A stretch of DNA of 64,000 bases from a virus (IMGVR_UViG_3300027821_000007:27504-91503); one strand, 5' to 3'; positions 21,662 through 46,719 are shown, counted from the first letter of the stretch. The notes: generated by a model not told the origin, from the sequence alone. Numbers and translations: made by a program.

Positions 21662-23440
21662 GTGGCGCTCACGCCTAGTTCCTGGAACATGCCGCACCGG
21701 CCGATGAACCTGCCGGGAATGAACCGCGACAACGCCCCATCAACCCCGGTCGAGGCGGGACTGATACAGCGGATTTCCGGGCAGATGCGAACCTGGTTGG
21801 GGATGGGGCAGGCAGGGTCTACGGAACTGCCGTTCTTTCCGCCGGGCCGGCCGCTCGATCCCGTGGCGCCCGGGGCGGGTGGTCGGCGTTTCGATTACCC
21901 CACTTCGTACAATACTATCTATACGCCGCGCTCCTTCGAGCCGATCAACTTCGAAAGCCTGCGCGCCATCGCCGACCCGGCCGTGGGCGGCTACGACCTG
22001 ATCCGCCTCGCCATCGAAACCCGCAAGGACCAGATCGGCAACCTCAAGAAGTCGATCATGCCGAAGAAGCAGGGCGATCAGGCGTCGCGGCCCAAGACCG
22101 ACGACCGCTGTCGCCAGCTCGAGGCCATTTTCGAGCGCCCCGACGGTGAGATCGGCTGGCAGCAATGGGTGTCGCAACTCGTCGAGGAACACCTGGTCAT
22201 CGATGCCGCGACCATCGTGCGCAAGAAGAACCGCGGCGGCGAGACGGTCGGCTTTGAGCTCATCGACGGCTCGATGATCAAGCCGCTGCTCAACTACGAC
22301 GGCCGCACCCCGCTCGACGGGCCAGCCTACCAACAGGTCATGAAGGGCATCGTCGCGGCCGAGTTCTCCAAGGAGGACATGATCTACGCGCCGCGCAACC
22401 GGCGGGTGAACAAGGTCTACGGCTGCAGCCCGGTTGAGCAGGTGCTGGTCACCGCGAATATCGGCCTGCGGCGTCAGGCGCAGCAACTCGCCTACTTCAC
22501 CGACGGCACCATCCCCGACGCGGTGTGGCAGGTGCCTCCGACCTGGACCACGCAACAGATCGCCGAGTTCCAAGCCTATTGGGACACCATCGTCAACGAC
22601 GCGGTAACCCGGCGGAAGATGCGCTTTGCCCCGGGCGGCGTGACCCCGGTGATGACCCGCTCGCCCGAGGCGCTGGTCGACCAGTTTGACGAGTGGCTGG
22701 CGCGTATCATCGCCTTCTGCTTCTCGCTGCCGCCGACCCCGTTCGTTCGCCTGGTCAACCGCGCGACCGGCGAGACGATGTACGAACAGGCCCTGCAGGA
22801 GGGCCTCGCCCCACTTATGACGTGGATAAAGAGTCTCCTCGACTACATCATTGCCGATTGGTTCGGGTTTCCGGACATCGAGATGGTGTGGGACGATTTC
22901 AGAAAAGTCGACCCCGCGGAGAAGGAACAGCGCGACGTCGTCCTGGTCAACGAGGGCGCGATCTCGCTCGACGACATCCGCACCGAGCGCGGCATGGAAC
23001 CGCTCGGCGTGCCGCCCTTCGTGCGCGGCATCGGCCCGATGGGCTTCCTCTCGATCGAGGGCATCAAGAAGATCATCGCGAACGGCTGGGACGTCACCGG
23101 CCTGCCGCAGCCGACGATGCCGGGCCAGGAGATGGCCGGACTGGGCGGCGCGCCCGGCGAGGGCGACCCATCGGTCGACGAACTCGTGCAGGGCCTGCCG
23201 CCGGAGATCATCGAGGCGCTGGGGATCGCGCCGCAAACTCCGGCAAACGGCGCCGAAACTCCGGCAAATGGCCAAATGACGGGCGCCATGGTGGGCGCTG
23301 AAGGTCAAATGGTGGACGCTGCCGGATCGAATGTCGTGCCTTTCCATGAACATCCCGGCGTTAAAGCAGCCTTGGCGCACGGCGAGCAGATGGCGCACAA
23401 ACATGCGGCGCAGTTGAGGTCGGCAAAGCGCGGCAAATGA
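21662..23440 (+). CDS. portal protein
   Basis: LAIETRKDQI, LVIDAATI, IDGSMIKP, YGCSPVEQ, YFTDGTIP, FDEWLARIIAFCFSLPP, DDIRTERGMEPL. Confidence 0.9.
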   Translation: MALTPSSWNMPHRPMNLPGMNRDNAPSTPVEAGLIQRISGQMRTWLGMGQAGSTELPFFPPGRPLDPVAPGAGGRRFDYPTSYNTIYTPRSFEPINFESLRAIADPAVGGYDLIRLAIETRKDQIGNLKKSIMPKKQGDQASRPKTDDRCRQLEAIFERPDGEIGWQQWVSQLVEEHLVIDAATIVRKKNRGGETVGFELIDGSMIKPLLNYDGRTPLDGPAYQQVMKGIVAAEFSKEDMIYAPRNRRVNKVYGCSPVEQVLVTANIGLRRQAQQLAYFTDGTIPDAVWQVPPTWTTQQIAEFQAYWDTIVNDAVTRRKMRFAPGGVTPVMTRSPEALVDQFDEWLARIIAFCFSLPPTPFVRLVNRATGETMYEQALQEGLAPLMTWIKSLLDYIIADWFGFPDIEMVWDDFRKVDPAEKEQRDVVLVNEGAISLDDIRTERGMEPLGVPPFVRGIGPMGFLSIEGIKKIIANGWDVTGLPQPTMPGQEMAGLGGAPGEGDPSVDELVQGLPPEIIEALGIAPQTPANGAETPANGQMTGAMVGAEGQMVDAAGSNVVPFHEHPGVKAALAHGEQMAHKHAAQLRSAKRGK

Positions 23441-26400
23441 AAAAGCGGGAGCCTGACAAACCCGGTTGGGCGTCCAGGATTGCTGGGGCCGGGTTATTGG
23501 CGGGTGGTGGTATCGCGGCCGGCATGCTTATGCGAGGCAAAGGGGCGCGTATTGCCGGGGCGATGCGGCGCAGATTCCGTTCAACCGCCGCGTCTGCACC
23601 GCGGACAGCCTTCAAAACGCCACCCCCGGCAGCGGCGGCTCCGCGTCCCTCCGTGGCGCCCAAATCGGCCGCGCCTTCGCCGGCGCCGAAGCCACAGCAG
23701 TTTCACGGGCCGCCGCCCGCGCACGGTCCTGAACCCACCACCGACCTGGGGCAGCGCCGGAGAAAGGCGTTAAACAACTGGGTCAGCCACATCCACGATC
23801 ATGTCGGCAAGACCGTCAAGTTCAGGGACGACATCAACCAACTGCACCATTCAAAAGGGCAGATCATAGCCTCCCACGGCAAGGATGGCGGCGCGACCGA
23901 TGCGCATGTCGAGTGGGCGAAGAACATTGTCGAACCCATCGTGGCAGGCGAACCGATCGGATTGAAGAAACGCGACACCACCGGCTTGCTGTCGGCGGCC
24001 GAGCATCAGCAACGCGTCGCGGCCGCGCGCAGTCCCCGCCATCACGCCGAAACCGCGATCTCGGTACGCCAGGGCAGCACCGGAGCGCCGTCGAAGGCAG
24101 CGATCGGCCTGTTCCGGCAGGGTCAGCAACGCTCCGATACACGCGCCAGCCGCAGCGTCTGGGACACCCGCGGCACCGAGCAGGCGGTTGGCTCGATGAA
24201 CGCCCGCTTCAAGCTGCACCTGCCCCAGGCCTATCGCAGCACGCTGCCGGAATCGCTGCTGCCCTACCCGATGGGACGGCCTTTGCTGGCCGAAGCGTTG
24301 GCCGAGCCGCCGAAAAAGAAGGGCAAACAGAAGGTTGGGCCGCATCGTGACCTGACGATCGAGAACCCCAGCACCTTCACCGAAGCGATGCGCCATCCGC
24401 GCATGGTCGAGATCCTGCGCCGTTCGATTGGCGTGGTGCGCGATCACCAGAAAGGCGCGGTCGAATACGGTTACAAGAAAGGCCTTATCCCCAAAGGCAC
24501 GCCGCCGGGGCTGGCGGCACGGGCCTACAAGCATGCGGCGCTGATGGCGGTGCACAAGGTCGGGGTCGGCCACTACGACTTCGCCATGGACGCGACGATG
24601 CAGCGCGAACTCGAGCCGCTCCGGCTGTTCATGCAATACGCTCATCGCCGGGTATTCGACCGCCTGCACACCGAGAACCAGCCCGAGACGTTCGAGCCGT
24701 TCAAGCGCGAGTTCGGCAAGAAGTTCAGCAGCCGCAAGCACGGCAAGCTGACCGGCACCGAGCGTTACCGGATGTCGCCGAACAACGTTTTCATCAAGCG
24801 AGCGCCACTCACCCGTGTGCTGCGAATTGCCGGGCAGCATATTGGCGATCTGATCCGGCGGCCGACGGCGATCGGCAAAAAACCGTCATTTCCTGAGATC
24901 AAGCGAGATCTGTTGCGGGCCAATGCTTTGCGCAGGGAACGGCTGATCATCACCGATCCAAAGGGGCATGTAAGTCATCGCGTCACCGGAAGGCCGTATT
25001 CCACTCAGGTTAAAATGCCGATCAAAGGATTTCGTGATTTCCAAGGGTCAAACACATTTCACAACCATCCGACCAAAATCCCTCCAGGGGCATCAAGTGC
25101 TGACTATTCTTTTTCGATGGCTCTCGGTGCAACGCCTGAGAAGCCTCACACTATCATAACGCCCCATCATCGAGCGATCACACGCTACTTTTCCTCGCTT
25201 AAGCACGGAGTTGGTCTGAAAACGAGATACACTTCAGGCAAGGTTGAACAGCAGGGTGATTTCCCGCGGTCCCGAAAGGCGCCGCAACTCGGCAAGAAGA
25301 ACGAGGGTGCGATGCGCAAGGGTTGGACCAACGCCACAGGGGTCATCAACGCACCCGGTCGCGGCCCGACCGACCAGCCCGGCGACCAGCCGCCCGGCAA
25401 GATCCATCATGCCCGGCTGAAGCAGGCGATGAAGCATGGCCATGGCATACGGCTGTCGTTGAGCGGGCCGGTGCCCGAGCCACCGGGCGGTCTGCCGCCG
25501 CCGGCACATCCTGGGCTTCACGTGAAACACGCCGCACGCGAGGTCGAGCGGCATTTCGGGGTTGGCAAGATCAGCGGCGCCGCCGGGCTGCGTAAGGACT
25601 TCGACGATTTCATGCTGGCCGATCCCGGTTACTCGCCGGGGTTCAGCTACACCGACAACCCGGCCCTGCTGTTGCGCCGCTCGATGCGGCCGCGAATTCG
25701 CCGACGCCGCCAGGGATTGCGGCTGAACACCCAGAAGCACATGCGCCGCGCCTTGTCCGGCGGGATCACCCGCCACGAACGCTGGCTGTTGGGCGTCAAG
25801 CCGGCGCGGTGGGAAGCGTCCAAGAGTGGGGACTCTGCTGACGCCAGACTGCAGAAAGGCATCATCGGTTCGGCGATGAACTTCGGTGCGACCCACCTGA
25901 AGCCGTTGTTGGGCCAGATCAGCGGCGCGGCCACGCGCGCGAAGGGCGCGATCGGCAGCGGCTTCAAGCGTGCCGGATCGGCGATCGCGGGCAGCCGTGG
26001 CGGCCAAGCTATCGCCGGAAAGGCGAAGCAGTTGGCGGCCACGCCAAGAGGTCAGCGCATCGTCGGCAGCTCGCGCGTTCAAGCGTTGCACCACGAAGCC
26101 AAAGCCTTCCGTGGTGGCGGGTTTCGCGAGGGCGTCATGGCGAATGTTGGCGGGTTTACCGGGGCGGCGCTTGGTGGCCATCGTGGCGCCAAGCTCGGGC
26201 GCACCGTGGGTTTCGCTGCCGAATACGCGCCGTATGCCTATGCTGGAGCCAAAGCCGCGCAGCACTTCATGGGTGGCAAGGATAAGGAAAAGGCGGTGGA
26301 GAAGATCTCGCCGCGGATGATGTTCGGGGCCGGGGTTGCCGCGGTCGCGGCCCGACGGGCGGCAGCCAAGCTTGCGACCCATCCGCGCGTTGCTCCGGTC

Positions 26401-26826
26401 GTGAACGAACTGCGCGCGCAAGGCACCATGAAAACCCCGCTCTGGCGCCTGGGACGTCTTACCGGCGCGGCCATTGCTGGCGAGAAGGGTGCCAGGATCG
26501 GCGGCCATGTCGGGCGGACGCTTGAAATCGCTCCGATTGTCGCCGGCGGCACGCACATCCTGATCAACCGCAAGAAGCGCCAGCAGGAAACGAAGAAGCA
26601 GATCGACCGCCTGAAGGCGATGCCCGGCCAGTTAGTGATGGGCAAGAACAGTCCGGCCCGCGATATCTATACCAGCGACCTCAACGAGACCGTGCGGGCA
26701 CATCTGCGCTCGATTTCCGGCGGCGGCTATTCGCCGCACCAGCTCGCCCAGGTCAGAGCAATCCTGGCCGCAAGTAGACGTCACACCCAGTCTCGGGCAC
26801 AACCCGCGGCACAACAGAGCCAATAG
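23437..26826 (+). CDS. modular basic head-associated polyprotein (1129 aa) with a JAB-like and glycine-zipper modules
   Basis: ATGA coupling to portal; very basic; modules bounded by L/M/V-x-K sites; HNHP..SxxD at 25060-25104. Confidence 0.7.
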   Translation: MKKREPDKPGWASRIAGAGLLAGGGIAAGMLMRGKGARIAGAMRRRFRSTAASAPRTAFKTPPPAAAAPRPSVAPKSAAPSPAPKPQQFHGPPPAHGPEPTTDLGQRRRKALNNWVSHIHDHVGKTVKFRDDINQLHHSKGQIIASHGKDGGATDAHVEWAKNIVEPIVAGEPIGLKKRDTTGLLSAAEHQQRVAAARSPRHHAETAISVRQGSTGAPSKAAIGLFRQGQQRSDTRASRSVWDTRGTEQAVGSMNARFKLHLPQAYRSTLPESLLPYPMGRPLLAEALAEPPKKKGKQKVGPHRDLTIENPSTFTEAMRHPRMVEILRRSIGVVRDHQKGAVEYGYKKGLIPKGTPPGLAARAYKHAALMAVHKVGVGHYDFAMDATMQRELEPLRLFMQYAHRRVFDRLHTENQPETFEPFKREFGKKFSSRKHGKLTGTERYRMSPNNVFIKRAPLTRVLRIAGQHIGDLIRRPTAIGKKPSFPEIKRDLLRANALRRERLIITDPKGHVSHRVTGRPYSTQVKMPIKGFRDFQGSNTFHNHPTKIPPGASSADYSFSMALGATPEKPHTIITPHHRAITRYFSSLKHGVGLKTRYTSGKVEQQGDFPRSRKAPQLGKKNEGAMRKGWTNATGVINAPGRGPTDQPGDQPPGKIHHARLKQAMKHGHGIRLSLSGPVPEPPGGLPPPAHPGLHVKHAAREVERHFGVGKISGAAGLRKDFDDFMLADPGYSPGFSYTDNPALLLRRSMRPRIRRRRQGLRLNTQKHMRRALSGGITRHERWLLGVKPARWEASKSGDSADARLQKGIIGSAMNFGATHLKPLLGQISGAATRAKGAIGSGFKRAGSAIAGSRGGQAIAGKAKQLAATPRGQRIVGSSRVQALHHEAKAFRGGGFREGVMANVGGFTGAALGGHRGAKLGRTVGFAAEYAPYAYAGAKAAQHFMGGKDKEKAVEKISPRMMFGAGVAAVAARRAAAKLATHPRVAPVVNELRAQGTMKTPLWRLGRLTGAAIAGEKGARIGGHVGRTLEIAPIVAGGTHILINRKKRQQETKKQIDRLKAMPGQLVMGKNSPARDIYTSDLNETVRAHLRSISGGGYSPHQLAQVRAILAASRRHTQSRAQPAAQQSQ

Positions 26827-29829: not shown

Positions 29830-29854
29830 AAGCGGCCAGAGGGCCGCTTTTTTT
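29830..29854 (+). terminator. Rho-independent terminator
   Basis: AAGCGGCC-AGAG-GGCCGCTT followed by a T run. Confidence 0.75.
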
Positions 29855-29870
29855 GTGGGTTCAGTGCCGA

Positions 29871-32093
29871 TTGTCCCTGCTCAAACATAGTCCGGGCGCG
29901 CCCCTGACGCCGGCGGAATTGATCCAGCGGCGCAATGCCGCGCGTTCGCGCTGGAAGGCCGGCGGGGTGCAGGCTGGCGTTCTCGCGGCAGGCGGCGGCG
30001 TCGGCGGGGGTATCGGTGCGGGCGTCGGCGCCTACCACGGACTCAAGGAAGCTGGCGCGCGCGAATTCAAGCGCCGGTCGCAGGCTTCGGCCGAGGCCGA
30101 GGCGGCGTTCCGCACCAAGGCGGTCGAGGCGCAGCACGAGATCAACGCCGCCAGGCGCGCGTTGCGGGAGGCGCGAACCCGCGATTGGATGAAGCAGTAC
30201 AATCGCTGGGCCGAGCAGCTCCGCGAGACGGTGCCGAAGCAACGGGGCAAGAAGCAGCCGAAGAAGACCCTGATCGAGGCGATGTACGGTTCGGAAACCG
30301 TGCTCGAGATGAAGGCGCGCAAACTCGTCAACGAACGCAACGAAATGGGCATGGCGGGCGGCGCGCCGCGGATGACCAACGAAGAGGTCCACGAGACCTA
30401 CAACGAGATCCTGAACGATCTGAAGCGGCAGGCGCGTCCGGCGCCCGCGGTCGAGTTCAAGCCGTTCCGGCCGATTATCGGCAACAAGCAGAACAAGCTC
30501 ATCTACGACCGCGAGATCTGGGACCTGAAGGAGAAGAAGCTCAAGCCGGCGATAGCGTGGCGGGAGCGGTTGATCACCAAGGAGGTCCTGGCCGTTGGCG
30601 GCGATCCGACCAATGCGGCCGAACGCGCCGAAGCCGCCGCGACAAACGCGGTAAGGCCGGCACATCTCGAGATTTCCGACATCAACCGGCAGATCAAGGA
30701 TTTCGAGGACCTGAAAACCCGCGGCTTCCGGCGTCAGGCGCGCTCGGGCCATGTCCAGCAACGCAAGACCGGCAAGGTCAACATCGCCCCGCAGATCGTC
30801 GAGCAGCATCGCGGCGGCGACACTGTGGCCGGGATGATGGGTCGGCGCAGTAAGAAGAAGGCCAAGATCGAAGCGGACATGAAGCGGTTCCTGGGGCGGC
30901 ATGACCTCCAGACCGCGCGCCGGGTCAAGGAACTCGAGCGCCACATCGCCGACCGACTGGTGAACGAGGCGAAGATCGAGGCCGGGTTTCGCCAGTTCAA
31001 GCAGCCGATCTGGGAAGCTGGCCCGGCCGCCGCCAAGGCCGGCGCGATCCATGGCGGCAAACTCGGCGCCGCGATCGGCCTGACCGCCGCCGGGGTTTCG
31101 CTGCTGGCCTACCACGCCGTCAAGGCGGTGCATCGCCGGCTCAAGAAGTCCGCCGACGGCCTGCCGCTACTGGCCAAGGCGGCCACGCCCGAGGACGAGG
31201 CGTCGATCAGCCTGGCGCGGGCCTATCGTCGCTGGATCGATCGCCTGCTGGGCCTCGACGAACGGCCGATCAATTTCGGCGACGGCTTCGCCGAGGCGCT
31301 GGCCCCGTTGATCTCCGACTCTTTCGCCAAGGGATTGACGACGGCGCCGGTCGTCCAGCCGGACGATCCGCGCTACCGCATCGACGTCGATTTCGACCTC
31401 TTCGATCCGGCGCAGGAGCGCCACATCGCCGAATACGCGCTGCGCCAGATCGTCGAGATGAGCAACGCTCAACGCGAGGCGATCCGCGCCGCGGTGCGCG
31501 ATCAGTCGGTGCTGGAAGGAATTGGTCCGATCGAGGTCGCGCGCACCATCCGCCAGGCGATCGGCCTGACCACCTACCAGCAAAGCGTCGTGGCCTCTTT
31601 CCGTACCCAACTCGACCAGCTCGACCCGCGCGCGCTCGAGCGCGAACTGCGCGACAAGCGCTACGACCGCACGCTGCGCGCCGCGATCGCGAGCAACACG
31701 CCGCTCGATGCCGACAAGATCAATGCCATGGTCGACGCTTATCACCGCCGGATGCTGGCGTTGCGGGCGCAGACCATCGCGCGCACCGAATCGATCCGGG
31801 CCGAAAGCTATGGCGGCCTGTCGCGGGCGCAACAGATCCTCGACCAGAACCCGGAGCTCGAGGTTACCAAGCGCTGGCTGGCGACGGCTGACAACCGTAC
31901 CCGCGACACCCACCGCGACCTCAACGGCAAGGAGGTCGACGGCATGACCACGCATTTCATCACCTCGGCCGGCAATCAGATCCGCTGGCCGCTGGATGAC
32001 ACGGCGGCGGCCGACGAGGTCATCAACTGCCGCTGCACGCTGCAATACATCTTCAAACCGAGACGGGGGCATCTCATGGCGGTCGCGGCATGA
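29871..32093 (+). CDS. head morphogenesis (MuF/SPP1 gp7-like) protein with ~430-aa N-terminal extension
   Basis: C-terminal RAQTIARTE...KRWLATADNRTRDTH..LNG...RWPLD....DEVINCRC; start TTG 29871 (or 29853) uncertain. Confidence 0.85.
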   Translation: MSLLKHSPGAPLTPAELIQRRNAARSRWKAGGVQAGVLAAGGGVGGGIGAGVGAYHGLKEAGAREFKRRSQASAEAEAAFRTKAVEAQHEINAARRALREARTRDWMKQYNRWAEQLRETVPKQRGKKQPKKTLIEAMYGSETVLEMKARKLVNERNEMGMAGGAPRMTNEEVHETYNEILNDLKRQARPAPAVEFKPFRPIIGNKQNKLIYDREIWDLKEKKLKPAIAWRERLITKEVLAVGGDPTNAAERAEAAATNAVRPAHLEISDINRQIKDFEDLKTRGFRRQARSGHVQQRKTGKVNIAPQIVEQHRGGDTVAGMMGRRSKKKAKIEADMKRFLGRHDLQTARRVKELERHIADRLVNEAKIEAGFRQFKQPIWEAGPAAAKAGAIHGGKLGAAIGLTAAGVSLLAYHAVKAVHRRLKKSADGLPLLAKAATPEDEASISLARAYRRWIDRLLGLDERPINFGDGFAEALAPLISDSFAKGLTTAPVVQPDDPRYRIDVDFDLFDPAQERHIAEYALRQIVEMSNAQREAIRAAVRDQSVLEGIGPIEVARTIRQAIGLTTYQQSVVASFRTQLDQLDPRALERELRDKRYDRTLRAAIASNTPLDADKINAMVDAYHRRMLALRAQTIARTESIRAESYGGLSRAQQILDQNPELEVTKRWLATADNRTRDTHRDLNGKEVDGMTTHFITSAGNQIRWPLDDTAAADEVINCRCTLQYIFKPRRGHLMAVAA

Positions 32094-33595: not shown

Positions 33596-33619
33596 TCCGT
33601 CAGTGATGGAGGTCCATCG

Positions 33620-36600
33620 ATGACGGAGTTCACCTTCTTCCTGCCGCTGACCAAGGCGGACGAGGAAAAGCGTCTGGTGTGGGGACGGGCGGCGGTCGAG
33701 GAGCCGGATAAGTCCAAGGAGATAATGGATTATCTCTCGGCCAAGCCCGAGTTCCAGAAATGGAGCGACGGCTACTCCAAGGCCACAATGGGCAAGAGCT
33801 TCGGGAACATCCGCGCGATGCACAACCCGAAGCACCTCGCCGGCAAGGTGGCCGAGATCGTCTACAACGACGACGCCAAGGCGGTGGATATCTGCGTCAA
33901 AGTGTTGGATCCGGTCGACTGGGCGAAGGTCGAGGAGGGCGGCTACACCGGCTTCTCGATCGGCGGCGGCTACGTCAAGAAATGGGCGGACCAGGCCTCG
34001 GGGTGCACACGCTACACCCCGCGCATCCAGGAGATTTCGTTCGTCGACAGTCCGTGCATCCCCGGCGCGCGAATCATGGAGATGCAGAAGCAGGACGGCA
34101 GCCTCGAGGAGGTCCTGCTGAAAGGTGTCCCGCGCAGTTTCGCCGAACTGCTGCCGCCGCCAAGCTTCGCGCAGTTGCGCAAGGGCATCGCCGGGGAACT
34201 GGCCGGCAGCGTTGCCGGCAACTTTATCGGCAGCAAGATCGGCGCGGTGGCGGGATCGGCGCTGGGCCCGGCCGGAACGGCGGTCGGCCATGTCGTTGGT
34301 GGTGAAATCGGCAGCATGGCGGGCAGCGCGCTCGCCGGCGCTAAGGCGCCATCGATGGCGGAGGCGGCGCAGGTGGCGGGAGGAAAGGCCCCCTCCAGCA
34401 ACCTGAGGATCCCCAAGGCGCCGAAACCCAAGCAGGGGTTTCGCATGTCGAGCACCTTCAAGGGTGCGCCGGATGGCGGCATGGTCAAGCGTTGGGATGT
34501 CTCCAAGCATCCGCGCGAGCATACCGGCGCGTTCGCCAGCAAGACCGGCGAGAAGGTCGGACGGTTCACGCTCGGTGGCGCCGGCGCGGTCGGCGGCACG
34601 CTGCTTGGGCTGAAGCACGGCGAGAAGTTGGGCACGCAAGCTGGCCTCCATGCGTCATCGCTCTACCACCGCATGAAGGGCAGTCCCGGGTTCGCCGCCG
34701 GCGTGAAGGCCGGGGATATCGGCGGCTGGGCGGGCCGTCGCTATGGGGGGTTGATCGGCGCCGGCGCCCTCGGCCTCGGCGGCGCCCTGGTGGGCGGTGC
34801 AGGCGGAGCGCTGCTCGATACCGCCATGCGGCGGCGGCGGGCGAAGAAGGCAGGGCGGCTCGAAATCTACCACCGGTTGAACGCCAAGACGTCGGCGCGG
34901 CCGAACAGCTTCAAGCAGGTGAAGGCGTCCACGATGCGCGCGGTGAGCGCGGGCAAACGCGTGCGCGGCATTGCCGACGCGGTCATGGGAAAGGGCCACG
35001 CCATGGATAAGCCGGTCGAGAAAGGCCTTGGCGGTGCGGCGCTCGGCGCCGGGCGGGCGTTGGGCGCGGCCGGGTTGGCGATGGGACGCCATGCCGGGAT
35101 CAAGGTTCTTCCGCACTATATCGGCATGGCCGGCGCCGCGGCCGGCGTGAAGGCGGGTTTCCAGGGCGGTCGCCGGCTCGGGGCGAAGATCGCGGACAAG
35201 ATGATCGCGCGCAACCAGGCCAAGGGGATCGGGCCGATCACGGCGACGGCCGGCGCCGGCAAGCCCGGCCTGATCCGGCACGGCGAGAAGATCGTGCGCG
35301 GGGTTGGCGAGCAACTGACATCGCGGCAGAAGAAGATCCTGCTGGGCACGGTGGCGGGCACCGCAGTTGCCGGCGGCCTTGCCGGCGGGGTTGCCGCCCA
35401 TCAGGCGTCCCACCACACCGTCAAGCATATCGACAAGAAGCTGACCCAGCGTTTCGGCCGGCCACGCGCGCCGGGCGAGCGGATGCAGTTCGACGCCAAG
35501 AAGTCGGCCCCGACCGGCAAGATGAACAAGTTCATCGTGCCGCTTGCGTTGGGCGTCGGCGGCGCAATGCTGGGAGGCCACCTCGGCGCAAAGGGCGGAG
35601 CGCGGTTGGCGGCTCACGGCCTCCATCGGCGCATGCTTAGCGGTACTGCCAGTCATTATGACCTTACCGGCGCGCCGATCTTTACCGGCGCGGGGACTGG
35701 CGGCGTTGGCGGCATGATCAGTGGCGGCGGACTTGGCATCCATATCGGCCGCAAGATCGAAAACCGCGACGGCAAGGCCAAAAAGCAGGAACGGCGCGGC
35801 GATCTCGACAAGGCGTTCGGAGCGAAGCTTGCGCAGGGCGCGATGGCGGCGTTGCGCAAGCCAGGACGCGTGGGCGAAAGCATTGGCGCGAAAGTAGGAC
35901 AGCGTGTTGGCAGCAGAATGTTCACTGCCGCCAAGGCCCGCGGAGCAAGCGACCACGAAGCAGCCCAACGCATGTGGCGCGCGATGGGCACCGGACGAAC
36001 CGTTGGTCGTAACGTCGGCCATGGTCTCGCAGCCGGCGGCGCGGCCGCGACCGGCCTGGGCATCGCCGCCATGTCGCGGCGCCGCAATGCCGAGAAGCAG
36101 GAGCGTCGCGGTGATCTCGACAAGGGGATCGGCGGGTCGATCATGCGCGGCGCGCTCAACGCCATCGAAAGCCCGACCGGGCGCAAAGTCATCGGTAGCC
36201 TGGGCCAGGCCGGACGTTCGGTTAAAGGAGCCGCGACGTCGTTGGGGCAGAAAGCCAGCGGGGCCGCGACGTCGTTCAGGCAGAAGGCCACCGGCATGGC
36301 CAGTTCCGCCATGGCGAGCCCGGCCGGACAGTCGGTCGCGGCGGCCGGCAACAAGGCGAGCGGCATGGCGCGGCGCGGGGCGATGAAAGCGATCAACAGC
36401 CCGATAGGCGCGCAGACCATTAAAACCGCAGGCAAATTTGGGCAAACGATTGCCGCGCATCCTCGCGCCGCCACGGCTGTCCTGGCGACCGGGGCGGCAG
36501 GATATGCCCTAGGGCAGCGCCGCGGCCGGTCAGAAATGTCGGACAAGCAGGAACGTCGTGGCAATCTCGAGAAAGGCATGATCGGAGCGATCGGCCAAGG

Positions 36601-38332: not shown

Positions 38333-41300
38333 GCAAGCCGATGTTCAATCCGGACATCATCGGCGAGTTAAGAAAGCGTGTCGCCGCGCATAACGAGATC
38401 GTCAAGGCGACGCATCCCGACATGGTGGTCAAGCTCGGCGGGGTGAAGAAGCTCTACAAGCGCTGGTACTCGGGCCCCGACCCGCATGCCCACGCGCTGG
38501 CCATGCTCGATGCCCGGTTGCTGACGCAGCAGACCATGGCGCTGGGCGAACTGGAGAAAGCGCGCCAGCCCTTCGAGGGCGCCCGTCATCCCCGCGGTCG
38601 CGGCGGCCAGTTCCGCTCGAGCGGCCGGGGCGGCGGTGGAACTGGTGGAGGTGGCGGCGGCGGCACCGTGGCGCCGCGTCCAGCCGGCGGCGGTCCCGGC
38701 GATGGCGACAACGCCCTGCTGCAGGCGGCGCAAACCCAGGTCATCCCGGAAACCCGCTACACGGTGTTCGGCCCCAAGGTCGCGGCCGCGGCGGGCATCG
38801 GCCTCGGCGCCATTGCCGGGGCGACGGCCCGTCCCGGCCTGCCCTGGCAGGGCGGAGGGTCGGTGATCGATCGCGGCGTCACCAGCATTGCCGGAGCGCT
38901 CGGCCGTCAGGGCGGCAAACTCGTCGGGATCATGGGCCGTGCCGCCGGGATCGACGCGCCGATCGGCGTGGCGCGCCGGGTGGTTCCCATCCTCAATCGT
39001 CATGGCGGCGCGTTTCCAATGCCGGGACCGACCGCCGGGGTGGCGGCGGGCGATCGGCTCGTGAACGCGGCGGGGCGGGGCGGGCGCGCGGTCGGCCGCG
39101 GCATCAGCCACGCTTTTTCGCTGGCGAACTACCCGGCGGCGCGGGTCGGACAGATGGTCGCGCGCACCAAGGGCCCGATCGCTGGCCGTGCGGCCGCTGC
39201 CATGGTCGGGGCGGCGCTTCCCGGCATCGCCTATGCCAGGACGCTGCATCACGTGCAGGGCACGATCGGGCCCTACCAGGACACGCTCTTTCCGCGACGG
39301 GTGAAGAAGATCGACGAGCAGGTCAGGGACATGGTCGGGCCGATCTGGGACGATCCGGCGGTGCTGGCCAAGCAGGCCGAACTGCTGACGTTGCCGGACC
39401 TCGCCAAGCAGGATCTGTCGGAGTTTCTCACCAAAGTATCGTTCGGCCCGGCTGTGAGCGCCGGGGGCGCCGCCGCGATGCGCTCGCTGCGCTTCCTGCG
39501 CGGCCCGGTCGCGCGCGCCACCCGGATGTTCACCAAGCCGCCGCCACCCCCGCCGCCGATGCAGGGGCCGCCCAGCGCGATCCAGCACGCGGCCGAGACC
39601 GCGTTCGGCGAGCAGGCGGGGCATTTCCGGGTGCCGCGCAATGTCGGCGTGCGTGCCGGCGTGATCGCCGGGCATGTCGCCGGACTTGGCCTTCTCGGCG
39701 CCGGGGCCGGGGCATTGACGGGCGCTGGGTTGGCGGCGTTCGCGATCCAGCATCCGCGCGATCCGCACACCGGCAAGTTCCGCTCGAAGGGGCAGGCGGC
39801 GCGGACGGGCGCGCTCCACGGCGCCGTGCTCGGCAGTGGCCTGGGTTTGGCGCTTGGCATTGTCGCGGCTCGCGGTGGGCAGAAGGAATTGCTGCGCGCG
39901 GCGCTTGGCCGATTGCGTGACCAGGTGGCGACCAAGGAAGGCGCGATGGCGCGCGCCGCGATGCATGACCGCGCCGAGAAGAGCGCCACCGACACCTTCT
40001 CCGCGACCTATATGGCCGACAATCCGCACCTGAAGATCGAGGTGCCGGACGGCTCCAGGGTGAAGCCGTCGCAGATCAGGAAGCATCAAGGCGACATCGC
40101 TGTCGAGGATTGGGTTGCGCGCGAGGGCGCCGCGATGCATGCCGGCCCGGTGACCTGGTATCAGAAACAGGTCGAGGACCACTTCGAAGCGTTCGTCGAT
40201 CGCCAGTTGCTCGCGCTGAAAAGCAAGAGACAGCGCAACCTGCCGCGCCGGAACGATGCCGATCGCCTGATCGACAGCGTCGACGATCAGATCGTGACGA
40301 CGCATAACGAACTGGGCGAGGCCATACATCACGACCCGCTCACCGTCGACCAACGCAGGATCTGGAACGGCGCTTTAGAAATGCGCCAGCGGGCGCGCGA
40401 CGAGATCGAGGCGGTCTATGCCGGCCGCAGAGCGCAGGTCAAAGAGCATGGGACCGCCGCCATCGGCCTCAAGCACGAGCAAGGCCAGCTTATCGCCAAA
40501 CTCGGTTCGGTGCGGGCGGATTGGAACCACGTCCTGCTGACCAAGCCGTCACCGTCGGTCGAGCAGTTGCGGGCGGTCGCAACCAGCATCGGCCACAAGC
40601 TGGAAGCCAAGACCAAGGAAGGCATCGTCGCGGAACTGCAGGAGCGGATCCCGCGATGGGAGCATGAGGTCGACTCCCGCATCACCCAGATCAAGGACGA
40701 AATTCCGCAACTCGAGGATGCCGCCGAGGTGGCGCGGGCGTCCGAGAAGGAGGACCTGACCCAGGAAGAACAGCGGCTCATCCGCAACCCGTTTATCAAG
40801 ACGCGCAAGGCAAGAAAGGGCAAGCCGGCGATAACGGGCTTCTTTGAGCCGCGTCTGCCTGGGGTCGGCACGGCCGCGGGCTACGACGAGATCAAGGCGG
40901 GGATCGCCGACGAAGCGAACAAGGCTTTCAACCAGGGGTTGGAACGGCACGTCATCGCGGCCAAGCAGCATCTCGAGGAACTGGCCCTGGCCGAGGAGGC
41001 CGCGATCCAGGCGCGGATCCCGGCGAACAACGTCTTCGCGGAGTGGATCAAGCGCAAAACGCCGGAATTCTCCGACAAGATGGCGCAGGGCTGGGCCGAC
41101 TACAACGAACTCACCGCGGCCTATCGGGGTCAACTCAAAGGCCAGATGAAGCAGTTATACGACGGCGTCCACGCCCACCGCGACCCGAAGAAGGCTTTCG
41201 ATACGATTAAGAAGATGGCCAAGGGGGCGGCCGATTTCTGGAACAGCGATGCCGGCAAGTGGCTGCGGCAGAACTGGAAATACGTGGTCGGCGTGGTCGG

Positions 41301-43278
41301 GCCGATGGCCGCGATAGGCATCATCGATTTGCAGGCCGGGCCGGGCAAGAAGAAGGTCGAGCTCAACCCGAAGAAGTGGCGGTGGCGTAATGTCCAGGCG
41401 CATTTCGAGCTGCCGGGCGGCCTGAAACGGCCGGACGAGGCGGTCTTCGGCGTCAAGTTCAAGGACAAGGATGGCAAGGAAAAGTTCCTGCATGCCATCC
41501 ACGTCAAGAACAAGGAAGGCGAGTACCAGAACATCGGATACGGCTCCGAGGTCAACAGCGTCAGTAACTTCTTGCGTGGCGGGGACCAGCAGGGTGGTGG
41601 GGGCCATGGCGGCAACCGGCCGAACAAGGCTCAGGTGAACAACGGCGCGGAGGTCGACAAGGCGATCGCGGACGGGATTGCGGCGGGTCACATCAACGAA
41701 GTTGGCCCGACCAGCTTCACCTATGCCCAACGCAAGATGGGCGAGCCGCAGGGCAAGAAGGAAGAGGAGTCGGTCCGCAAGTGGTTCGTCGAGAAGCACA
41801 TCAACGGATTGCAGCATATCGGCAACCAGCACTTCTCAAGCGACAAGCACGACCGGTTCTACGCCTCGCTGCGTGATCTGTTCGAGGGCGGCCGGACCGA
41901 ACTCTTCGACCGGGACACCCGCAAGCAACTGCTGCTGGGCAGCGATTTCGACAAGAGAAACCGCGGCATCTTCGGCAATCAGAAGGTCTGGCACGATATC
42001 CCGCACGATCCCGCGGCGGTCGGCGGAGCCCTGCTGCGGCAGCTCAAGATGGCCGGCGCCATGCCGTTGAACCCCGAAGAATACACCCAGATGCATCGGG
42101 CGCTGTCGTTCGTCGCCAACCTCGCTGGCCTCGACCAGAACCAGAAGAGCAGCCTGAACAAGGCGTTGCAGGACGGCTATCTGAACATCACCAAGCGAAC
42201 CTCGGTGCCCACGGTGAGCGCGAGCGGATTGGAGAACCAGAAGTCGATCGAGAGCTTCAAGACCGAGATGCTGAACAACGACAAGATCACCGAGGCGCGC
42301 CAGCGCAAGGGCCTCGACGATCAGGGTGCGTTCACCGATTTGCTCGATACCCTCTACCAGAAGGGCCGCGAGGGCGCCGTCGCCCGGAACAACAGCGCCG
42401 ACGACAACGAGCAGCACGTCGCCGGCATGCAGCATGTGCGTGAGCAGGTGTTCTTCCGGCTCAACACGCTCGGCAAGGCGGCGCCGCTGGGCGATCTCTA
42501 CAAGCTCTTCGGCATGGCCGACCGGTTCGACGAGCAGCGCCATCCGCGCGGCCATATCGGTCAGTTCCGTGCTGCGGGCCACAACGCCCCGCCACAGGTG
42601 GGCGCGATCAGCGGGGCGCGGCAGCACATGCCCACCCCGGACTCGCCCGGGCCGCAATCGGTTGGTGACTTCGCCATGCGGCGGCCGCCGGAAAGCCCCG
42701 GGATGGCGCCAACCCAGGCGCCTGCCGGCCATGGCGGGAGGTTTGGCGGCGCCGATTTCGGCGCATCGCACATGCTCGGGCAGGTCGGCACCTACGGGCT
42801 GAGCCAGGCGGGGTGGGACGTGGTCGGCAACCTCGCTTCGCACATGATGCCGGCGGGCGGCATGGTTTCGAACGCCACCAAGTTCGGGCTGCAGACGATG
42901 GGCGGCTTCGCCGGCTCGATCGGTGGCCTGAAGGGCGGCCAGGCGCTGGGCCACGCGATGGGCGACCGCAGCCCGCACCACGAGGCGCCGGCAGCCGAGG
43001 GCATCGTGCGCAACCTCGCCGGCGGCGGAGCGCAGATCGCCTTCAACGAATATGCCGGGCCTGCGGTCGGACGGGTGATCGCCGGGGCAGCCGGGCGGGC
43101 GCTGGGTGGGACGGCCGGGTCGTTCCTGGGACCCGCCGGGACGATCCTGGGATCGGCGCTGGTCGGGGCGCTCACCGATGAAGGCGTGGGAATTCTCTAC
43201 CGGCATCTGAGTCGCTACGGCGAACACGTGCCGGAGCACGCGATCAAGCATTTCCGCCACAAGGGCGCCCCCGCATGA
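38329..43278 (+). CDS. large internal virion/ejection-type protein (1649 aa) with glycine-zipper segments and three HPR..G.F motifs
   Basis: ATGA coupling; located between protease and scaffold; hydrophobic Gly/Ala segments and a helical middle region. Confidence 0.65.
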   Translation: MSKPMFNPDIIGELRKRVAAHNEIVKATHPDMVVKLGGVKKLYKRWYSGPDPHAHALAMLDARLLTQQTMALGELEKARQPFEGARHPRGRGGQFRSSGRGGGGTGGGGGGGTVAPRPAGGGPGDGDNALLQAAQTQVIPETRYTVFGPKVAAAAGIGLGAIAGATARPGLPWQGGGSVIDRGVTSIAGALGRQGGKLVGIMGRAAGIDAPIGVARRVVPILNRHGGAFPMPGPTAGVAAGDRLVNAAGRGGRAVGRGISHAFSLANYPAARVGQMVARTKGPIAGRAAAAMVGAALPGIAYARTLHHVQGTIGPYQDTLFPRRVKKIDEQVRDMVGPIWDDPAVLAKQAELLTLPDLAKQDLSEFLTKVSFGPAVSAGGAAAMRSLRFLRGPVARATRMFTKPPPPPPPMQGPPSAIQHAAETAFGEQAGHFRVPRNVGVRAGVIAGHVAGLGLLGAGAGALTGAGLAAFAIQHPRDPHTGKFRSKGQAARTGALHGAVLGSGLGLALGIVAARGGQKELLRAALGRLRDQVATKEGAMARAAMHDRAEKSATDTFSATYMADNPHLKIEVPDGSRVKPSQIRKHQGDIAVEDWVAREGAAMHAGPVTWYQKQVEDHFEAFVDRQLLALKSKRQRNLPRRNDADRLIDSVDDQIVTTHNELGEAIHHDPLTVDQRRIWNGALEMRQRARDEIEAVYAGRRAQVKEHGTAAIGLKHEQGQLIAKLGSVRADWNHVLLTKPSPSVEQLRAVATSIGHKLEAKTKEGIVAELQERIPRWEHEVDSRITQIKDEIPQLEDAAEVARASEKEDLTQEEQRLIRNPFIKTRKARKGKPAITGFFEPRLPGVGTAAGYDEIKAGIADEANKAFNQGLERHVIAAKQHLEELALAEEAAIQARIPANNVFAEWIKRKTPEFSDKMAQGWADYNELTAAYRGQLKGQMKQLYDGVHAHRDPKKAFDTIKKMAKGAADFWNSDAGKWLRQNWKYVVGVVGPMAAIGIIDLQAGPGKKKVELNPKKWRWRNVQAHFELPGGLKRPDEAVFGVKFKDKDGKEKFLHAIHVKNKEGEYQNIGYGSEVNSVSNFLRGGDQQGGGGHGGNRPNKAQVNNGAEVDKAIADGIAAGHINEVGPTSFTYAQRKMGEPQGKKEEESVRKWFVEKHINGLQHIGNQHFSSDKHDRFYASLRDLFEGGRTELFDRDTRKQLLLGSDFDKRNRGIFGNQKVWHDIPHDPAAVGGALLRQLKMAGAMPLNPEEYTQMHRALSFVANLAGLDQNQKSSLNKALQDGYLNITKRTSVPTVSASGLENQKSIESFKTEMLNNDKITEARQRKGLDDQGAFTDLLDTLYQKGREGAVARNNSADDNEQHVAGMQHVREQVFFRLNTLGKAAPLGDLYKLFGMADRFDEQRHPRGHIGQFRAAGHNAPPQVGAISGARQHMPTPDSPGPQSVGDFAMRRPPESPGMAPTQAPAGHGGRFGGADFGASHMLGQVGTYGLSQAGWDVVGNLASHMMPAGGMVSNATKFGLQTMGGFAGSIGGLKGGQALGHAMGDRSPHHEAPAAEGIVRNLAGGGAQIAFNEYAGPAVGRVIAGAAGRALGGTAGSFLGPAGTILGSALVGALTDEGVGILYRHLSRYGEHVPEHAIKHFRHKGAPA

Positions 43279-44879
43279 GCGGGGCAGGTGGCGGAGGGAC
43301 TTCGACGGGAGGCGGCGGAGGTGGTTTCACCCAGGGCACCAACGCTTTCGGAGGGCTGACGAACACCGATTTGCGGCCACGCCAGCGCCGCAAACGGCCA
43401 GTCCCGCTGCTCGACACTTCCTGGGTAACACCGCCGCACAGAAAGGAGCGCACCATGCGTAAAGATGTTTCAGGGCTCGTCGACACGCTTTACGACAGTG
43501 TCGCCGGAATAGTCGCGTCGGCATCGCCGGACACCAACGACCTGCTGACCAAGAGCTTCACCGAGTTCGGCAACGCGCTTGGGGAACAACTCGAGGCCGA
43601 GTATGGGCCGGACCCGGAGCCGTTGGCCAAGGGACTGAACCACGTCTCGGCGTTCGCCAACGCGCTGATGAAGATGGAAGTGAGCGTCCAGGCGATTAAG
43701 GCCGGCACGCCGATCTATGCCGACGACAACGAGCCCGTCGTGGCCTCGACGGCCGCCGCTCTCGACCGCTTCATGGGCCATGGCATCGTGCTGCTCAAGC
43801 AACTCGCCAACGACACCGCCCGGATCCCCGACGACGAGGAGGACATGGAGCGGGCGGAGCAGGCCGGCGAGTTGATCAAGATCGAAAGCCAGTTCGGCGA
43901 TGAGATGCTGCTGAAGACTGATCTCCCCGAAGATCTGGCGGCGTATCTCACCGACCCGCTGGACCTGATGACCGAGATCGCCGGGCTGGGCTCGAGCATG
44001 ATCGAGGACGCGCGCGGCATCGCCGACGCCTTGCTGGGGAGCGATCCGGATTCGATCCCGGAGGAAGTCGCGGAGCAATATCCGCTGGTGTTCGAGCCGT
44101 TGGAGAAGGAGTTCCCGCCGAAGAAGAAGGCCAACGGCGGCGGCTCGCCCTTCGGTGCCCAGCGCGGCCAGAGCAGTGACCAGAATGACAGCGGCGACGA
44201 CGAGGGCGACGAACCCGATGACGGCGGCGACGAACAGGGTGCGCAGGGTCAGGGCGCCATGGCGGCGCAAGGCGGGCCGGGCGGTGCCGGCGGCCCGGCT
44301 GACATCTCCGACGACACGCCGCAGAACCCGATCGACACCATCACCCGGTTGGCCAGCATCATCGTGGTGATCTCGGGATCGCTGCAGCAGGCGATGGGTG
44401 GCGGGCAGCAACCGCAGCAGCCGGACATGGCCGGCGGCCAGGGCGGCGATCCGCGCAATGTGGGCCTGCAGCGCGGCGAGCCGATCCTCGACCAGCCGTT
44501 GCAGAAGATCCTGCAGGGCGAGGCCGAGATCCAGATCCCGGGCATGGGCCAGATGACGATGGCCGAGGCGTTGGAGGAACTGGGCGAGTTGCGCAAGGCG
44601 GTGCCGCAACTGAGCAAGGCGCTCAACGAGAAGGGTGACGCGCTCAGCCTGTTGAAGACGCGGTACGACCAGATCGCCAGCCAGTCGGTGCGTTCGCCGG
44701 GGATGCAGAAGGCGGTGCCGGTGAGCAAGGCCGAGGACAGCGTGCCGGGAACGCACACGCAAGAGAACGACATGGAGAAGTTGGAGCAGTTGCAGAACGC
44801 GGATCCGGAGGGCGGCAGCGCCGCGAAGTTCCTGATCGGCCGGGTGCACCAGGGCGGCGGGGTGCCGTTGGTGCCGTAA
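43275..44879 (+). CDS. capsid scaffolding protein (alternative start ATG 43455)
   Basis: Acidic and coiled-coil; directly before the capsid gene; many L-x-K sites; SD AAGGAG before 43455. Confidence 0.7.
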   Translation: MSGAGGGGTSTGGGGGGFTQGTNAFGGLTNTDLRPRQRRKRPVPLLDTSWVTPPHRKERTMRKDVSGLVDTLYDSVAGIVASASPDTNDLLTKSFTEFGNALGEQLEAEYGPDPEPLAKGLNHVSAFANALMKMEVSVQAIKAGTPIYADDNEPVVASTAAALDRFMGHGIVLLKQLANDTARIPDDEEDMERAEQAGELIKIESQFGDEMLLKTDLPEDLAAYLTDPLDLMTEIAGLGSSMIEDARGIADALLGSDPDSIPEEVAEQYPLVFEPLEKEFPPKKKANGGGSPFGAQRGQSSDQNDSGDDEGDEPDDGGDEQGAQGQGAMAAQGGPGGAGGPADISDDTPQNPIDTITRLASIIVVISGSLQQAMGGGQQPQQPDMAGGQGGDPRNVGLQRGEPILDQPLQKILQGEAEIQIPGMGQMTMAEALEELGELRKAVPQLSKALNEKGDALSLLKTRYDQIASQSVRSPGMQKAVPVSKAEDSVPGTHTQENDMEKLEQLQNADPEGGSAAKFLIGRVHQGGGVPLVP

Positions 44880-45207: not shown

Positions 45208-46719
45208 ATGTCAGGATCCGTGTCCGAGAGCGTGCGGGCGGTACGTGAAGTCATGGCCGCAAACACGCCGCAGCTTGGCGCTTCGCCGCTGACCAAGTTC
45301 TTTGTCCAACCGAGCACCGCGACCACGGGCCTGCAGGTCTACGACCTCGAGGCACCGGCCAAGCTGCTCTATCCCGTCCTCACGCCGCTCCGCAATAAGA
45401 TCCCGCGGGTAAGTGGTGGACGCGGGATCCAGGCGAATTGGAGAGCAATTACAGCTATAAACACCACTAATGTGTCCGCTGGCCTCGGTCAGGGCAATCG
45501 TGGTGGCGTGATGGACCAGACGGTCAAAGAATACTTCGCAGCGTATCGTGGCATTGGTCTTGATAACTACGTGTCGTTCGAGGCTGACATGTCCTCGGAA
45601 GGCTTTCAGGACTTGAAGTCTACTGCTGTGCAGTCGCTATTGCGCGCTTTGATGATTCAAGAGGAGCGCATTCTCCTCGGCGGCAACGGCATCACCGGGC
45701 TGGGCACAACGCCCACTCCATCGGTCACTAATATTACCACCGGCGGGACCATCGGCACCGGCATCACGGTGCAGGTCGGCTGCGTGGCGCTGACGATGGA
45801 AGGCAAGCGACTGGCGAACATGACCACCGGCGTGCCCGGGGTCATCTCGCGCACCAACGCGGACGGCACGGTCGACACCTATGGCGGCGGCGCCGCGGCG
45901 CCCTCGACGCTGGGCACGGTGGCCACGACGACAGCGACTGCACAGATCTCGGCCCGCGTGGCGCCGGTGGTCGGTGCGTTCGGTTATGCGTGGTACGTGG
46001 GCTCGGCGGGCACCCAGTATCTGGTCGCCATCACCGCCATCAACTCGCTGCTGTTCCCTGGCCCGATGCCCGGCGCCGGCACCCAGACCTTCGCCTCGGT
46101 TTCGGGCGACAACAGCGTCAACAGCCTGGTGTTCGACGGCTTCGCCGCGATCGCGGCCAAGGCCGGCTCGGGCGCCTACTGGGCCGCGATGCCAACCGGC
46201 ACCGACGGCATCGGCACGCCACTAACTCCGGACGGGTCTGGAGGTATAGTTGAAGTAGATGCAGCACTACAGTCGTTCTGGGACAACTATAAGCTAAGTC
46301 CAGATGAGATGTGGGTGTCGTCGCAAGAACAAAATTACTTTCGCAGGAAAGTACTTACTGCGCCATCTGGCTCTGTTCCTCTGTCTCGATTTACCATTGC
46401 TACCGCGCAGAACCAGGTTCGCGGCGGTTCGTCTGTGCGCGGCTACCTCAACCCGTTCGGCATGGGGCAGGCGCAGGAAATTCCAATAAAACTGCACCCA
46501 GACATGCCGCCCGGCAATATAATGTTCACCACTTCCGAGTTGCCGTACGCCCTGAACGACGTAACCAATGTATATCAGGTGCGAACACGCAAAGATTACT
46601 ATCAGATTGAGTGGCCGTTACGCACGCGGAAGTATGAATACGGTTGCTATAGTGACGAGGTCCTACAGCATTACTTCCCGCCATCGCTTGGCTTCATCAC
46701 GAACATCGCCCCGGGTTAG
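45208..46719 (+). CDS. major capsid protein
   Basis: TTGLQVYDLEAPAKLLYPVLTPLRNKIPR, IKLHPDMPPG, DYYQIEWP...YEYGCY.DEVL; position after scaffold. Confidence 0.85.
   Translation: MSGSVSESVRAVREVMAANTPQLGASPLTKFFVQPSTATTGLQVYDLEAPAKLLYPVLTPLRNKIPRVSGGRGIQANWRAITAINTTNVSAGLGQGNRGGVMDQTVKEYFAAYRGIGLDNYVSFEADMSSEGFQDLKSTAVQSLLRALMIQEERILLGGNGITGLGTTPTPSVTNITTGGTIGTGITVQVGCVALTMEGKRLANMTTGVPGVISRTNADGTVDTYGGGAAAPSTLGTVATTTATAQISARVAPVVGAFGYAWYVGSAGTQYLVAITAINSLLFPGPMPGAGTQTFASVSGDNSVNSLVFDGFAAIAAKAGSGAYWAAMPTGTDGIGTPLTPDGSGGIVEVDAALQSFWDNYKLSPDEMWVSSQEQNYFRRKVLTAPSGSVPLSRFTIATAQNQVRGGSSVRGYLNPFGMGQAQEIPIKLHPDMPPGNIMFTTSELPYALNDVTNVYQVRTRKDYYQIEWPLRTRKYEYGCYSDEVLQHYFPPSLGFITNIAPG

Follow-up and report, generated by a model that had tools for sequence, protein, structure and literature searches.

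Introduction

In phage T4 the protease gp21 cuts at L/I-X-E and shreds the core proteins gp22, gp67 and gp68; it also trims internal proteins, whose propeptides target them to the head, and processes itself (PMC9026906). In SPN3US, nine proteins with 14 mapped sites are cut by gp245 after A-X-E (PMC10052503), and the HK97 gp4 protease cuts the capsid protein at K103/S104 (PMC10275583). The HK97 cleavage sequence is Phe-Asn-Lys followed by Ser, i.e. Phe stands at P3. Here, a stretch of viral DNA of 64,000 nucleotides (IMGVR_UViG_3300027821_000007:27504-91503, in the following the window) was analyzed. It makes up the right-hand 64 kb of a 91.5-kb virus record in IMG/VR with an estimated completeness of 89%. 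An initial annotation of this stretch had proposed that one Lys processing code runs through a whole head module of ~22 kb, that one protease turns six or seven head genes into dozens of products, and that the module works as a modular cargo platform.

We found that the triplet [Leu/Met]-x-Lys ([LM]xK) is enriched in the products of four adjacent head genes (p501, p1570, p1649 and p534), that this enrichment is specific and that the triplets are conserved in relatives. A prohead protease domain is present in the same block, at the start of p1570. We consider it likely that the prohead protease of the phage itself, the XkdF/S78_2-type domain of p1570, recognizes [Leu/Met]-x-Lys as its cleavage site (P3-x-P1). 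The motif is common to capsid, core and internal proteins: besides the four enriched genes, single conserved sites are found in the capsid and MuF proteins and also in p1129, and ~30-35 conserved sites were counted.

Such a system would resemble T4 in its three-residue P3-x-P1 rule with an aliphatic P3 and in the predicted action of one protease on many head proteins, in which core proteins would be cut to many departing pieces and cargo would be trimmed at one or few sites. Unlike in T4, P1 is Lys instead of Glu, the enzyme is of the XkdF/S78_2 type and apparently not homologous to gp21, over 1400 residues of cargo-like sequence are fused to the protease, and the virus does not appear to be a T4-like myovirus. 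No gp21-type family appeared in the Pfam or PHROG match lists, although no direct comparison with gp21 was made. A further likeness is to phiKZ gp175 (S/A/G-X-E) and SPN3US gp245, where a short motif directs the processing of many large proteins inside the head whose function is unknown, with several motif copies within propeptides; the present case differs from these in the opposite charge of P1, the protease family, a much smaller genome and the predicted status of its sites.

With HK97 the locus shares the protease superfamily (S78), Lys at P1, a hydrophobic P3 and a predicted removal of the scaffold by cleavage. However, the HK97 scaffold is a 102-103-residue domain of the capsid protein, which is the main substrate, whereas here the scaffold-like proteins are encoded by separate genes and extra giant proteins carry sites. 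A ~100-residue N-terminal scaffold (delta) domain of the HK97 type was not found, as only ~30 capsid residues precede the conserved site, and the triplet excess in the HK97 delta domain itself is not significant (4 vs 2.3 expected). Finally, the locus recalls the polyvalent proteins that phages package in their heads (Iyer et al. 2017, PMC5512222): the neighbours of the portal and MuF genes encode very large products built of several modules, which are predicted to accompany the DNA and to be substrates of a peptidase, with modules exchanged between carriers. Here the processing is proposed to be done by a prohead protease and not by an embedded zincin-like peptidase, and Pfam and PHROG scans of p1129, p1570 and p1649 found none of the effector or enzymatic domains that define polyvalent proteins, only the protease domain and DUF6496. 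The present case would thus combine T4 logic, an HK97-like Lys at P1 and an XkdF-type enzyme fused to cargo.

Results

[Leu/Met]-x-Lys is enriched in four adjacent head genes

Expected counts were derived from shuffles of each protein's own residues, which keep the composition of every protein. In the four adjacent genes (32090-44879), [LM]xK was observed 59 times while 28.2 were expected (z-score 6.4), a count that was reached in 0 of 1000 shuffles. The wider pattern [LMVI]-x-K, for which the initial annotation had suggested a head-versus-tail enrichment test, was found 85 times in the same genes (55.7 expected, z 4.6). This excess comes wholly from L and M, since [VI]xK occurred 26 times with 27.3 expected; Val and Ile at P3 do not belong to the motif of this phage. 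LxK alone was observed 44 times (20 expected), and MxK reached a z of 2.7. When all a-x-b pairs whose expected counts were large enough were scanned without bias, LxK ranked first in the four genes and between 173 and 272 elsewhere.

No excess of [LM]xK was detected in the remaining head genes (p1129, four small open reading frames (ORFs), the MuF protein and the capsid; 12 vs 15.7 expected), in the portal (3 vs 2.2), in the upstream genes within the window (9 vs 9.2) or in the first 27.5 kb of the genome (19 vs 21.8). The same was true for the tail genes (12 vs 12.9), in agreement with the annotation, which had found no such patterning there. When proteins were considered one by one, LxK was strongly enriched in p501 (9 vs 2.0 expected, p < 0.002) and p534 (11 vs 2.0, p < 0.002); the values were 14 vs 9.0 for p1570 (p 0.07) and 10 vs 6.8 for p1649 (p 0.13). 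Counts in p1129 (4 vs 5.3), the MuF protein (3 vs 3.8) and the capsid (1 vs 0.9) did not differ significantly from expectation. Expressed as the share of all Lys that belongs to an [LM]xK, 14 of 23 Lys in p534 (61%), 9 of 27 in p501 and 24 of 134 in p1570 end a triplet, while p1129 (7/80, 9%) and the MuF protein (3/46) stay at the chance rate.

The specificity of the signal was high. In the four genes, LxR, LxE, LxD, LxQ, IxK, VxK, AxK, FxK, L..K, LK, L...K and KxL all stayed within two standard deviations of expectation. Since neither the neighbouring spacings nor the other residue pairs (LxR, LxE, LxD, IxK, VxK, L..K, LK, KxL) showed an excess, an amphipathic-helix effect was ruled out. The z-score remained at 6.1-6.9 when residues were shuffled within windows of 15 or 30 residues only. 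The corresponding codon pattern occurred 59 times in frame but only twice and once in the two other frames, demonstrating that the signal lies at the protein level and ruling out a motif of the DNA itself. [LM]xR followed the chance rate in the four genes and was slightly elevated in p1129 (16 vs 10.3 expected, p 0.04). In the 1875-amino acid (aa) tape-measure-like ORF, [LM]xR was observed 24 times (12.7 expected, p < 0.001), probably caused by internal repeats, and the Lys form showed no excess.

All sites listed in the initial annotation were found in translated ORFs where it had placed them, and the last coordinate that it gave, 45297, corresponds to the codon for capsid Lys30. The double-Lys spacers that it described are borne out to a limited extent, as site pairs 6-13 residues apart are weakly over-represented (11 vs 6.3, p 0.04). 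Its statement that the code extends through the whole module has to be narrowed, since the signal is confined to 12.8 kb and four genes, with p1129 and the MuF protein at chance. Taken together, the motif is a real and specific feature with the alphabet L/M, not L/M/V/I, and a statistical footprint of 12.8 kb, not 22 kb.

The motif is conserved in related phages

Capsid homologues with 46% identity are present in the Brevundimonas phages Polewnik and Strzyga. The head module of Polewnik is simple, with a portal-MuF fusion, a protease fusion of 593 aa and a capsid gene, while three metagenomic phages of 98-105 kb (G001, G002 and G003) share the expanded module gene for gene. In the three metagenomic relatives, [LM]xK was counted 13, 11 and 15 times in the p501 family (2.5, 2.4 and 3.9 expected), 12, 13 and 15 times in the p534 family (2.6, 2.6 and 3.4), 15, 19 and 15 times in the protease fusion (6.9, 6.8 and 7.4) and 10, 11 and 15 times in the p1649 family (6.2, 6.0 and 7.6). 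The Polewnik protease fusion contains 12 (4.7 expected). For the p1129 family the excess was significant in just one of the three relatives, and their MuF protein, portal and capsid showed none. Among database homologues, all 25 of p534 (z 4.2-8.9) and all 16 of p501 were enriched, with z from 3.7 to 8.9 across both families.

Conservation was also seen site by site. At the conserved sites the entropy was 0-0.9 bits for P3 and P1 and mostly 1.2-2.9 bits for P2. Each of the nine LxK sites of p501 is kept in at least 13 of 16 homologues, and conservation of motif Lys in this family was 0.94, compared to 0.51 for other Lys (p 1e-4). In an alignment of 25 p534 sequences with a mean column identity of 41%, K63, K93, K119, K202, K214, K278 and K411 are kept in 21-25 members, and the Leu/Met or the Lys of a triplet accounts for several of the few columns without variation. 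Judged from sequence, a short motif ending in Lys is under selection in head-internal proteins.

Some observations in relatives concern Arg or other proteins. In the p1129-family protein of G002 (L002:1552-4488), LxR was found 20 times (9 expected, p < 0.001), and it was also raised in the G003 orthologue (13 vs 7.1 expected), so that the p1129 family may use a site variant ending in Arg. The Polewnik tape measure contains LxK six times (1.9 expected), with internal repeats as the likely cause. Arthrobacter phage Mufasa8, which has a capsid of 25% identity and a small XkdF protease, lacks the site in its capsid but is too distant to inform. No prophage relatives were found in a scan of genome contigs with p534.

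A prohead protease domain lies at the start of p1570

The first 157 residues of p1570 form a prohead protease domain of the XkdF or Peptidase_S78_2 type. Scanned alone (first 170 residues), the domain scored 25.3 bits against PF14550, with a curated cut-off of 24 bits, while the full-length protein reached an E-value of only 3e-3. Of the relatives, L002 scored 26.3 bits and two others fell just below the cut-off (22.4 and 21.3 bits). The domain further matched phrog_9427, a head maturation protease, at 1e-5, and its atlas neighbours carry S78 or S78_2. His68 and Ser113, the latter within Gly-x-Ser-x-Gly, are invariant in five relatives and are candidate catalytic residues; a MAFFT alignment to HK97 gp4 was too poor to equate them with His65 and Ser114 of that protein. 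The protease domain is encoded between the portal and capsid genes, in the same order in Polewnik and the three metagenomic relatives. No other protease family was detected in the scanned head-gene proteins, and the PDB yielded no usable match, whether the query was the capsid protein, the profile of its family or the protease domain.

Beyond the protease domain, p1570 is a long basic extension rich in Gly, Ala and Lys; the length of the fusion varies from 593 to 1570 aa among relatives. Domain boundaries in p1570 and p1649 were set from conservation, gap and composition profiles. Conserved sites of p1570 are K157, K168, K1056, K1127, K1163, K1183 and K1199. The first two directly follow the protease domain, K157 being kept in four of four phages and K168 in three of four. 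DUF6496 starts right after K1127 and has the conserved K1183 at its end. Sites specific to the window include three repeated spacers ending in K731, K835 and K985, which lie in the unalignable part of the protein; relatives carry similar Arg-rich spacers that end in [LM]-Gly-Lys.

Conserved sites in the capsid, MuF, p1649 and p1129 proteins

The only LxK of the capsid protein, with Lys30, is kept in L002 and Polewnik and is the predicted maturation site. Using 135 full-length representatives of the 1071-member capsid family (50% clustering), a hydrophobic-x-Lys was found 7-16 residues before the first strongly conserved block in 118, compared to 16% of background windows. P3 is mostly Leu (64), followed by Ile (24) and Val (14), and P1' is mostly Ala (71), followed by Ser (16) and Gly (9); Ile and Val at P3 are thus common at this site in distant relatives. 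The exceptions mostly carry Arg in place of Lys. In an alignment of 62 sequences, Lys30 is at least 90% conserved and is one of about 34 such columns.

In the MuF protein, LAK442 lies at the N-terminal edge of the conserved MuF block. The annotation had placed a site directly before the MuF core, and this was confirmed, as an [LM]xK followed by Ala stands in the same aligned column in five of five phages, including the portal-MuF fusion of Polewnik. A four-way alignment of p1649 identified K44, K77, K348 and K1392 as conserved sites, the last being the end of the K1383-K1392 pair; K77, K348 and K1392 lie beside gap-rich, indel-prone, variable linkers. The centre of p1649, ~950 residues, holds only three [LM]xK sites, none of which is conserved.

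In p1129, LRK720 is the sole site kept in all four phages. K620, K628, K807 and K956, which had been put forward as processing sites, are unconserved in relatives. LKK178 corresponds to the extreme N-terminus of the orthologues, which begin with Met, [LM]xK and then Arg-Asp or Arg-Tyr. The 175 residues before it in the window, a hydrophobic Gly/Ala segment followed by a Pro/Ala-rich stretch, are absent from the three orthologues. Codon 176 is TTG, so translation may in fact begin at this point; alternatively, an additional module may have been fused to the N-terminus.

Sites in p501 and p534 lie in linkers and in predicted helices

AlphaFold2 models of p534 and p501 were of low confidence (mean predicted local distance difference test (pLDDT) 64 and 61, predicted template modelling score (pTM) 0.34 and 0.28, respectively) and suggest helical bundles broken by long disordered stretches. 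Sites preceded by Pro (p534 K119, K278 and K411; p501 K150) are modelled in low-confidence linkers or at boundaries, and p501 K441 also falls at a modelled boundary. A fold search of BFVD with the p534 model returned nothing below an E-value of 0.01, and no sequence similarity was found between p534 and the protease-scaffold fusion of Polewnik. The name scaffold is given to p534 only for its position and composition.

With Met61 as start, which is the choice of automatic gene callers, p534 has 474 aa. Most homologues nevertheless retain the 60 residues upstream of it, and the long form shares the sequence ATGA with the p1649 stop. The triplet Met61-Arg-Lys63 shows no variation among the 25 homologues and may represent an internal start or a cleavage site, or serve as both.

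A cassette bounded by the motif and a tag close to it

In an all-against-all comparison the only match between different genes was a 168-residue cassette of p1570 (residues 291-458), which shares 46% identity (E 5e-23) with residues 358-526 of the G002 p1129-family protein. In both carriers [LM]xK and a His-Pro-Arg...Gly-x-Phe tag stand immediately before the cassette and [LM]-Gly-Lys after it. The tag, His-Pro-Arg-x(3-5)-Gly-x-Phe, has one copy in p1570 and three copies in p1649; three of the four follow an [LM]xK by 6-13 residues, and most copies are conserved in G001, G002 and G003.

Organization of the locus

The features of the window are listed in Table 1. The G+C content is ~64%, and all genes considered here lie on the plus strand. 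The large terminase gene is found 17 kb upstream of the portal gene, with the 3127-aa ORF among the intervening genes. Calculated net charges are -32 for p501 and -41 for p534, and +116, +118, +47 and +34 for p1129, p1570, p1649 and the MuF protein, respectively. The virus appears to be a long-tailed phage of ~90-105 kb, since genes for a tail tube-like protein, a terminator and a presumed tape measure are present and no sheath gene was seen.

Table 1. Position of genes, domains, sites and tags in the window.
Feature	Position	Strand	Remark
Large terminase	3248-4750	+	
3127-aa ORF	10042-19425	+	only 0.9% Lys, without motif excess
Portal	21662-23440	+	
p1129	23437-26826	+	followed by four small ORFs
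p1129 N-terminal extension	23437-23961		175 residues
p1129 LKK178	23962-23970	+	
p1129 LRK720	25588-25596	+	
MuF protein	29853-32093	+	746 aa; MuF domain is the C-terminal third
MuF protein LAK442	31170-31178	+	
p501	32090-33595	+	acidic, helical, core or scaffold-like
p1570	33620-38332	+	protease fusion
Prohead protease domain	33620-34090	+	XkdF / Peptidase_S78_2 type; p1570 residues 1-157, ends at MQK157
Movable cassette	34490-34993	+	p1570 residues 291-458; MVK290 upstream, MGK458 at end
Tag in p1570	34508-34534		
DUF6496	37013-37168		p1570 residues 1132-1183
p1649	38329-43278	+	large head protein
Tags in p1649	38587-38613, 39751-39780, 42541-42567		
p1649 K1383 to K1392	42475-42504		
p534	43275-44879	+	acidic; directly upstream of capsid gene
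p534 residues before Met61	43275-43457		60 residues
Major capsid protein	45208-46719	+	phrog_13692 match, 1e-132
Capsid LxK	45289-45297		Lys30
Adaptor, tail terminator, tail tube-like protein			downstream of capsid gene; the last is 'minor tail protein' in PHROG
1875-aa ORF	51983-57610		tape measure by length and position only

Discussion

If the p1570 domain cuts at [LM]xK, the protease would free itself at K157 and K168, and the capsid protein would lose ~30 residues by trimming at K30. The acidic proteins p501 and p534 would act as core or scaffold, be cut to pieces of ~10-60 residues plus one long disordered piece each, and leave the shell. In p1570 and p1649 only few linker sites would be cut, and the resulting domains or cassettes would stay with the DNA. 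The basic p1129 and the MuF protein would likewise stay with the DNA after limited trimming, with a conserved site at the N-terminal edge of each.

A number of points weigh against this reading. We infer the cutting of the motif, its assignment to the p1570 protease and the fate of the fragments wholly from sequence, and the protease assignment is itself marginal, with a PF14550 match of 25.3 against 24 bits and no match at all for the protease domain of one relative. Predicted helices or strands contain about two thirds of the p501 and p534 sites, and some sites fall within internal structural repeats, e.g. around K94 and K180 of p501. Further, the near-perfect conservation of nine redundant disposal sites exceeds the needs of simple degradation. 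K12 of p1570 belongs to a conserved LxK that is part of the protease fold, and the motif alone therefore over-predicts. Seven [LM]xK in p1129 and three in the MuF protein occur at chance frequency and are mostly unconserved, so that these sites are either protected by folding or the rule is incomplete.

The position of most p501 and p534 sites in helices or strands and of some in repeated helical units, together with K12 and a conservation of 0.94 per motif Lys in the p501 family, would also fit a triplet that serves as a structural or binding motif, a contact element among the acidic core proteins and the capsid inner face or portal, with the capsid copy making the same interaction. Helix packing, however, is not expected to exclude Arg, Ile and Val sharply, nor to ignore P2. 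In addition, proteins with no relation to each other carry the triplet at linkers and domain edges, as seen in p1649, in the MuF protein, around the cassette and where the protease domain ends, and in the capsid it stands just before conservation begins, mostly followed by Ala, Ser or Gly, as expected of a maturation site. We therefore regard a purely structural role as unlikely. The initial annotation had suggested checking whether sites fall at domain or disorder boundaries, which is the case at the capsid N-terminus, the edge of the MuF block and the p1649 linkers but not for the majority of sites in p501 and p534. These are neither plainly buried in folded domains nor cleanly outside them, as the models predict scaffold-type helices and not globular cores.

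It is more improbable still that the sites are cleaved by a host Lys-specific protease or another phage protease instead of the N-terminal domain of p1570. The borderline Pfam score leaves room for such an enzyme, and no description of XkdF-type specificity was found in the searched literature. Nevertheless, the motif co-occurs with this protease type in Polewnik, where the protease is fused to an enriched segment, the protease domain ends precisely at a conserved site, and the scanned head-gene proteins offer no other protease family. Moreover, the substrates reside inside the head, and cleavage there is usually the work of a packaged protease (PMC9026906). An artefact of composition or annotation, caused by proteins of low complexity that are rich in Lys and Leu, is refuted for practical purposes: a Lys content of 4-8.5% in head-internal proteins and 0-4% elsewhere is bound to raise raw head counts, but expectations were calculated per protein and by local shuffles, neighbouring spacings and other residue pairs were not enriched, the Lys-rich p1129 (7.1% Lys) stayed at chance, and the sites are positionally conserved in 41 homologues.

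Cleavage by the p1570 protease thus being our preferred reading, the annotation's idea of one protease with dozens of products is possible in number, given the protease domain in the same block and the count of conserved sites, although most products would be scaffold debris; the many cuts in p501 and p534 would more plausibly serve disposal. The modular cargo idea is fitted by the cassette found in two carrier genes, its best evidence and a single case. As a tentative and rather doubtful extension, the head of this lineage could be a cleavage-delimited cargo system, in which [LM]xK-bounded, often tagged cassettes move among the protease fusion, the p1129 family and p1649 and then become individual products, basic or rich in Gly/Ala, within the capsid. 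If this were true, the protease gene itself would be an expandable cargo array, with products of 593 to 1570 residues among relatives.

That a single head protease acts on many substrates, with scaffolds being shredded and cargo trimmed, is well established for T4 and phiKZ and is not a new principle. On Lys-specific prohead cleavage and XkdF specificity, nothing beyond HK97 was found in the searched literature. If the proposed rule is true, XkdF-type prohead proteases would gain a concrete specificity, with an aliphatic P3 and Lys at P1, and the rule would predict the mature N-terminus of a capsid family with more than 1000 representatives at 50% clustering. It would also help to tell which segments of giant head proteins that lack annotation become separate products. 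As ends produced by cuts after Lys look tryptic, standard trypsin-based virion proteomics is blind to this kind of processing and would miss it entirely.

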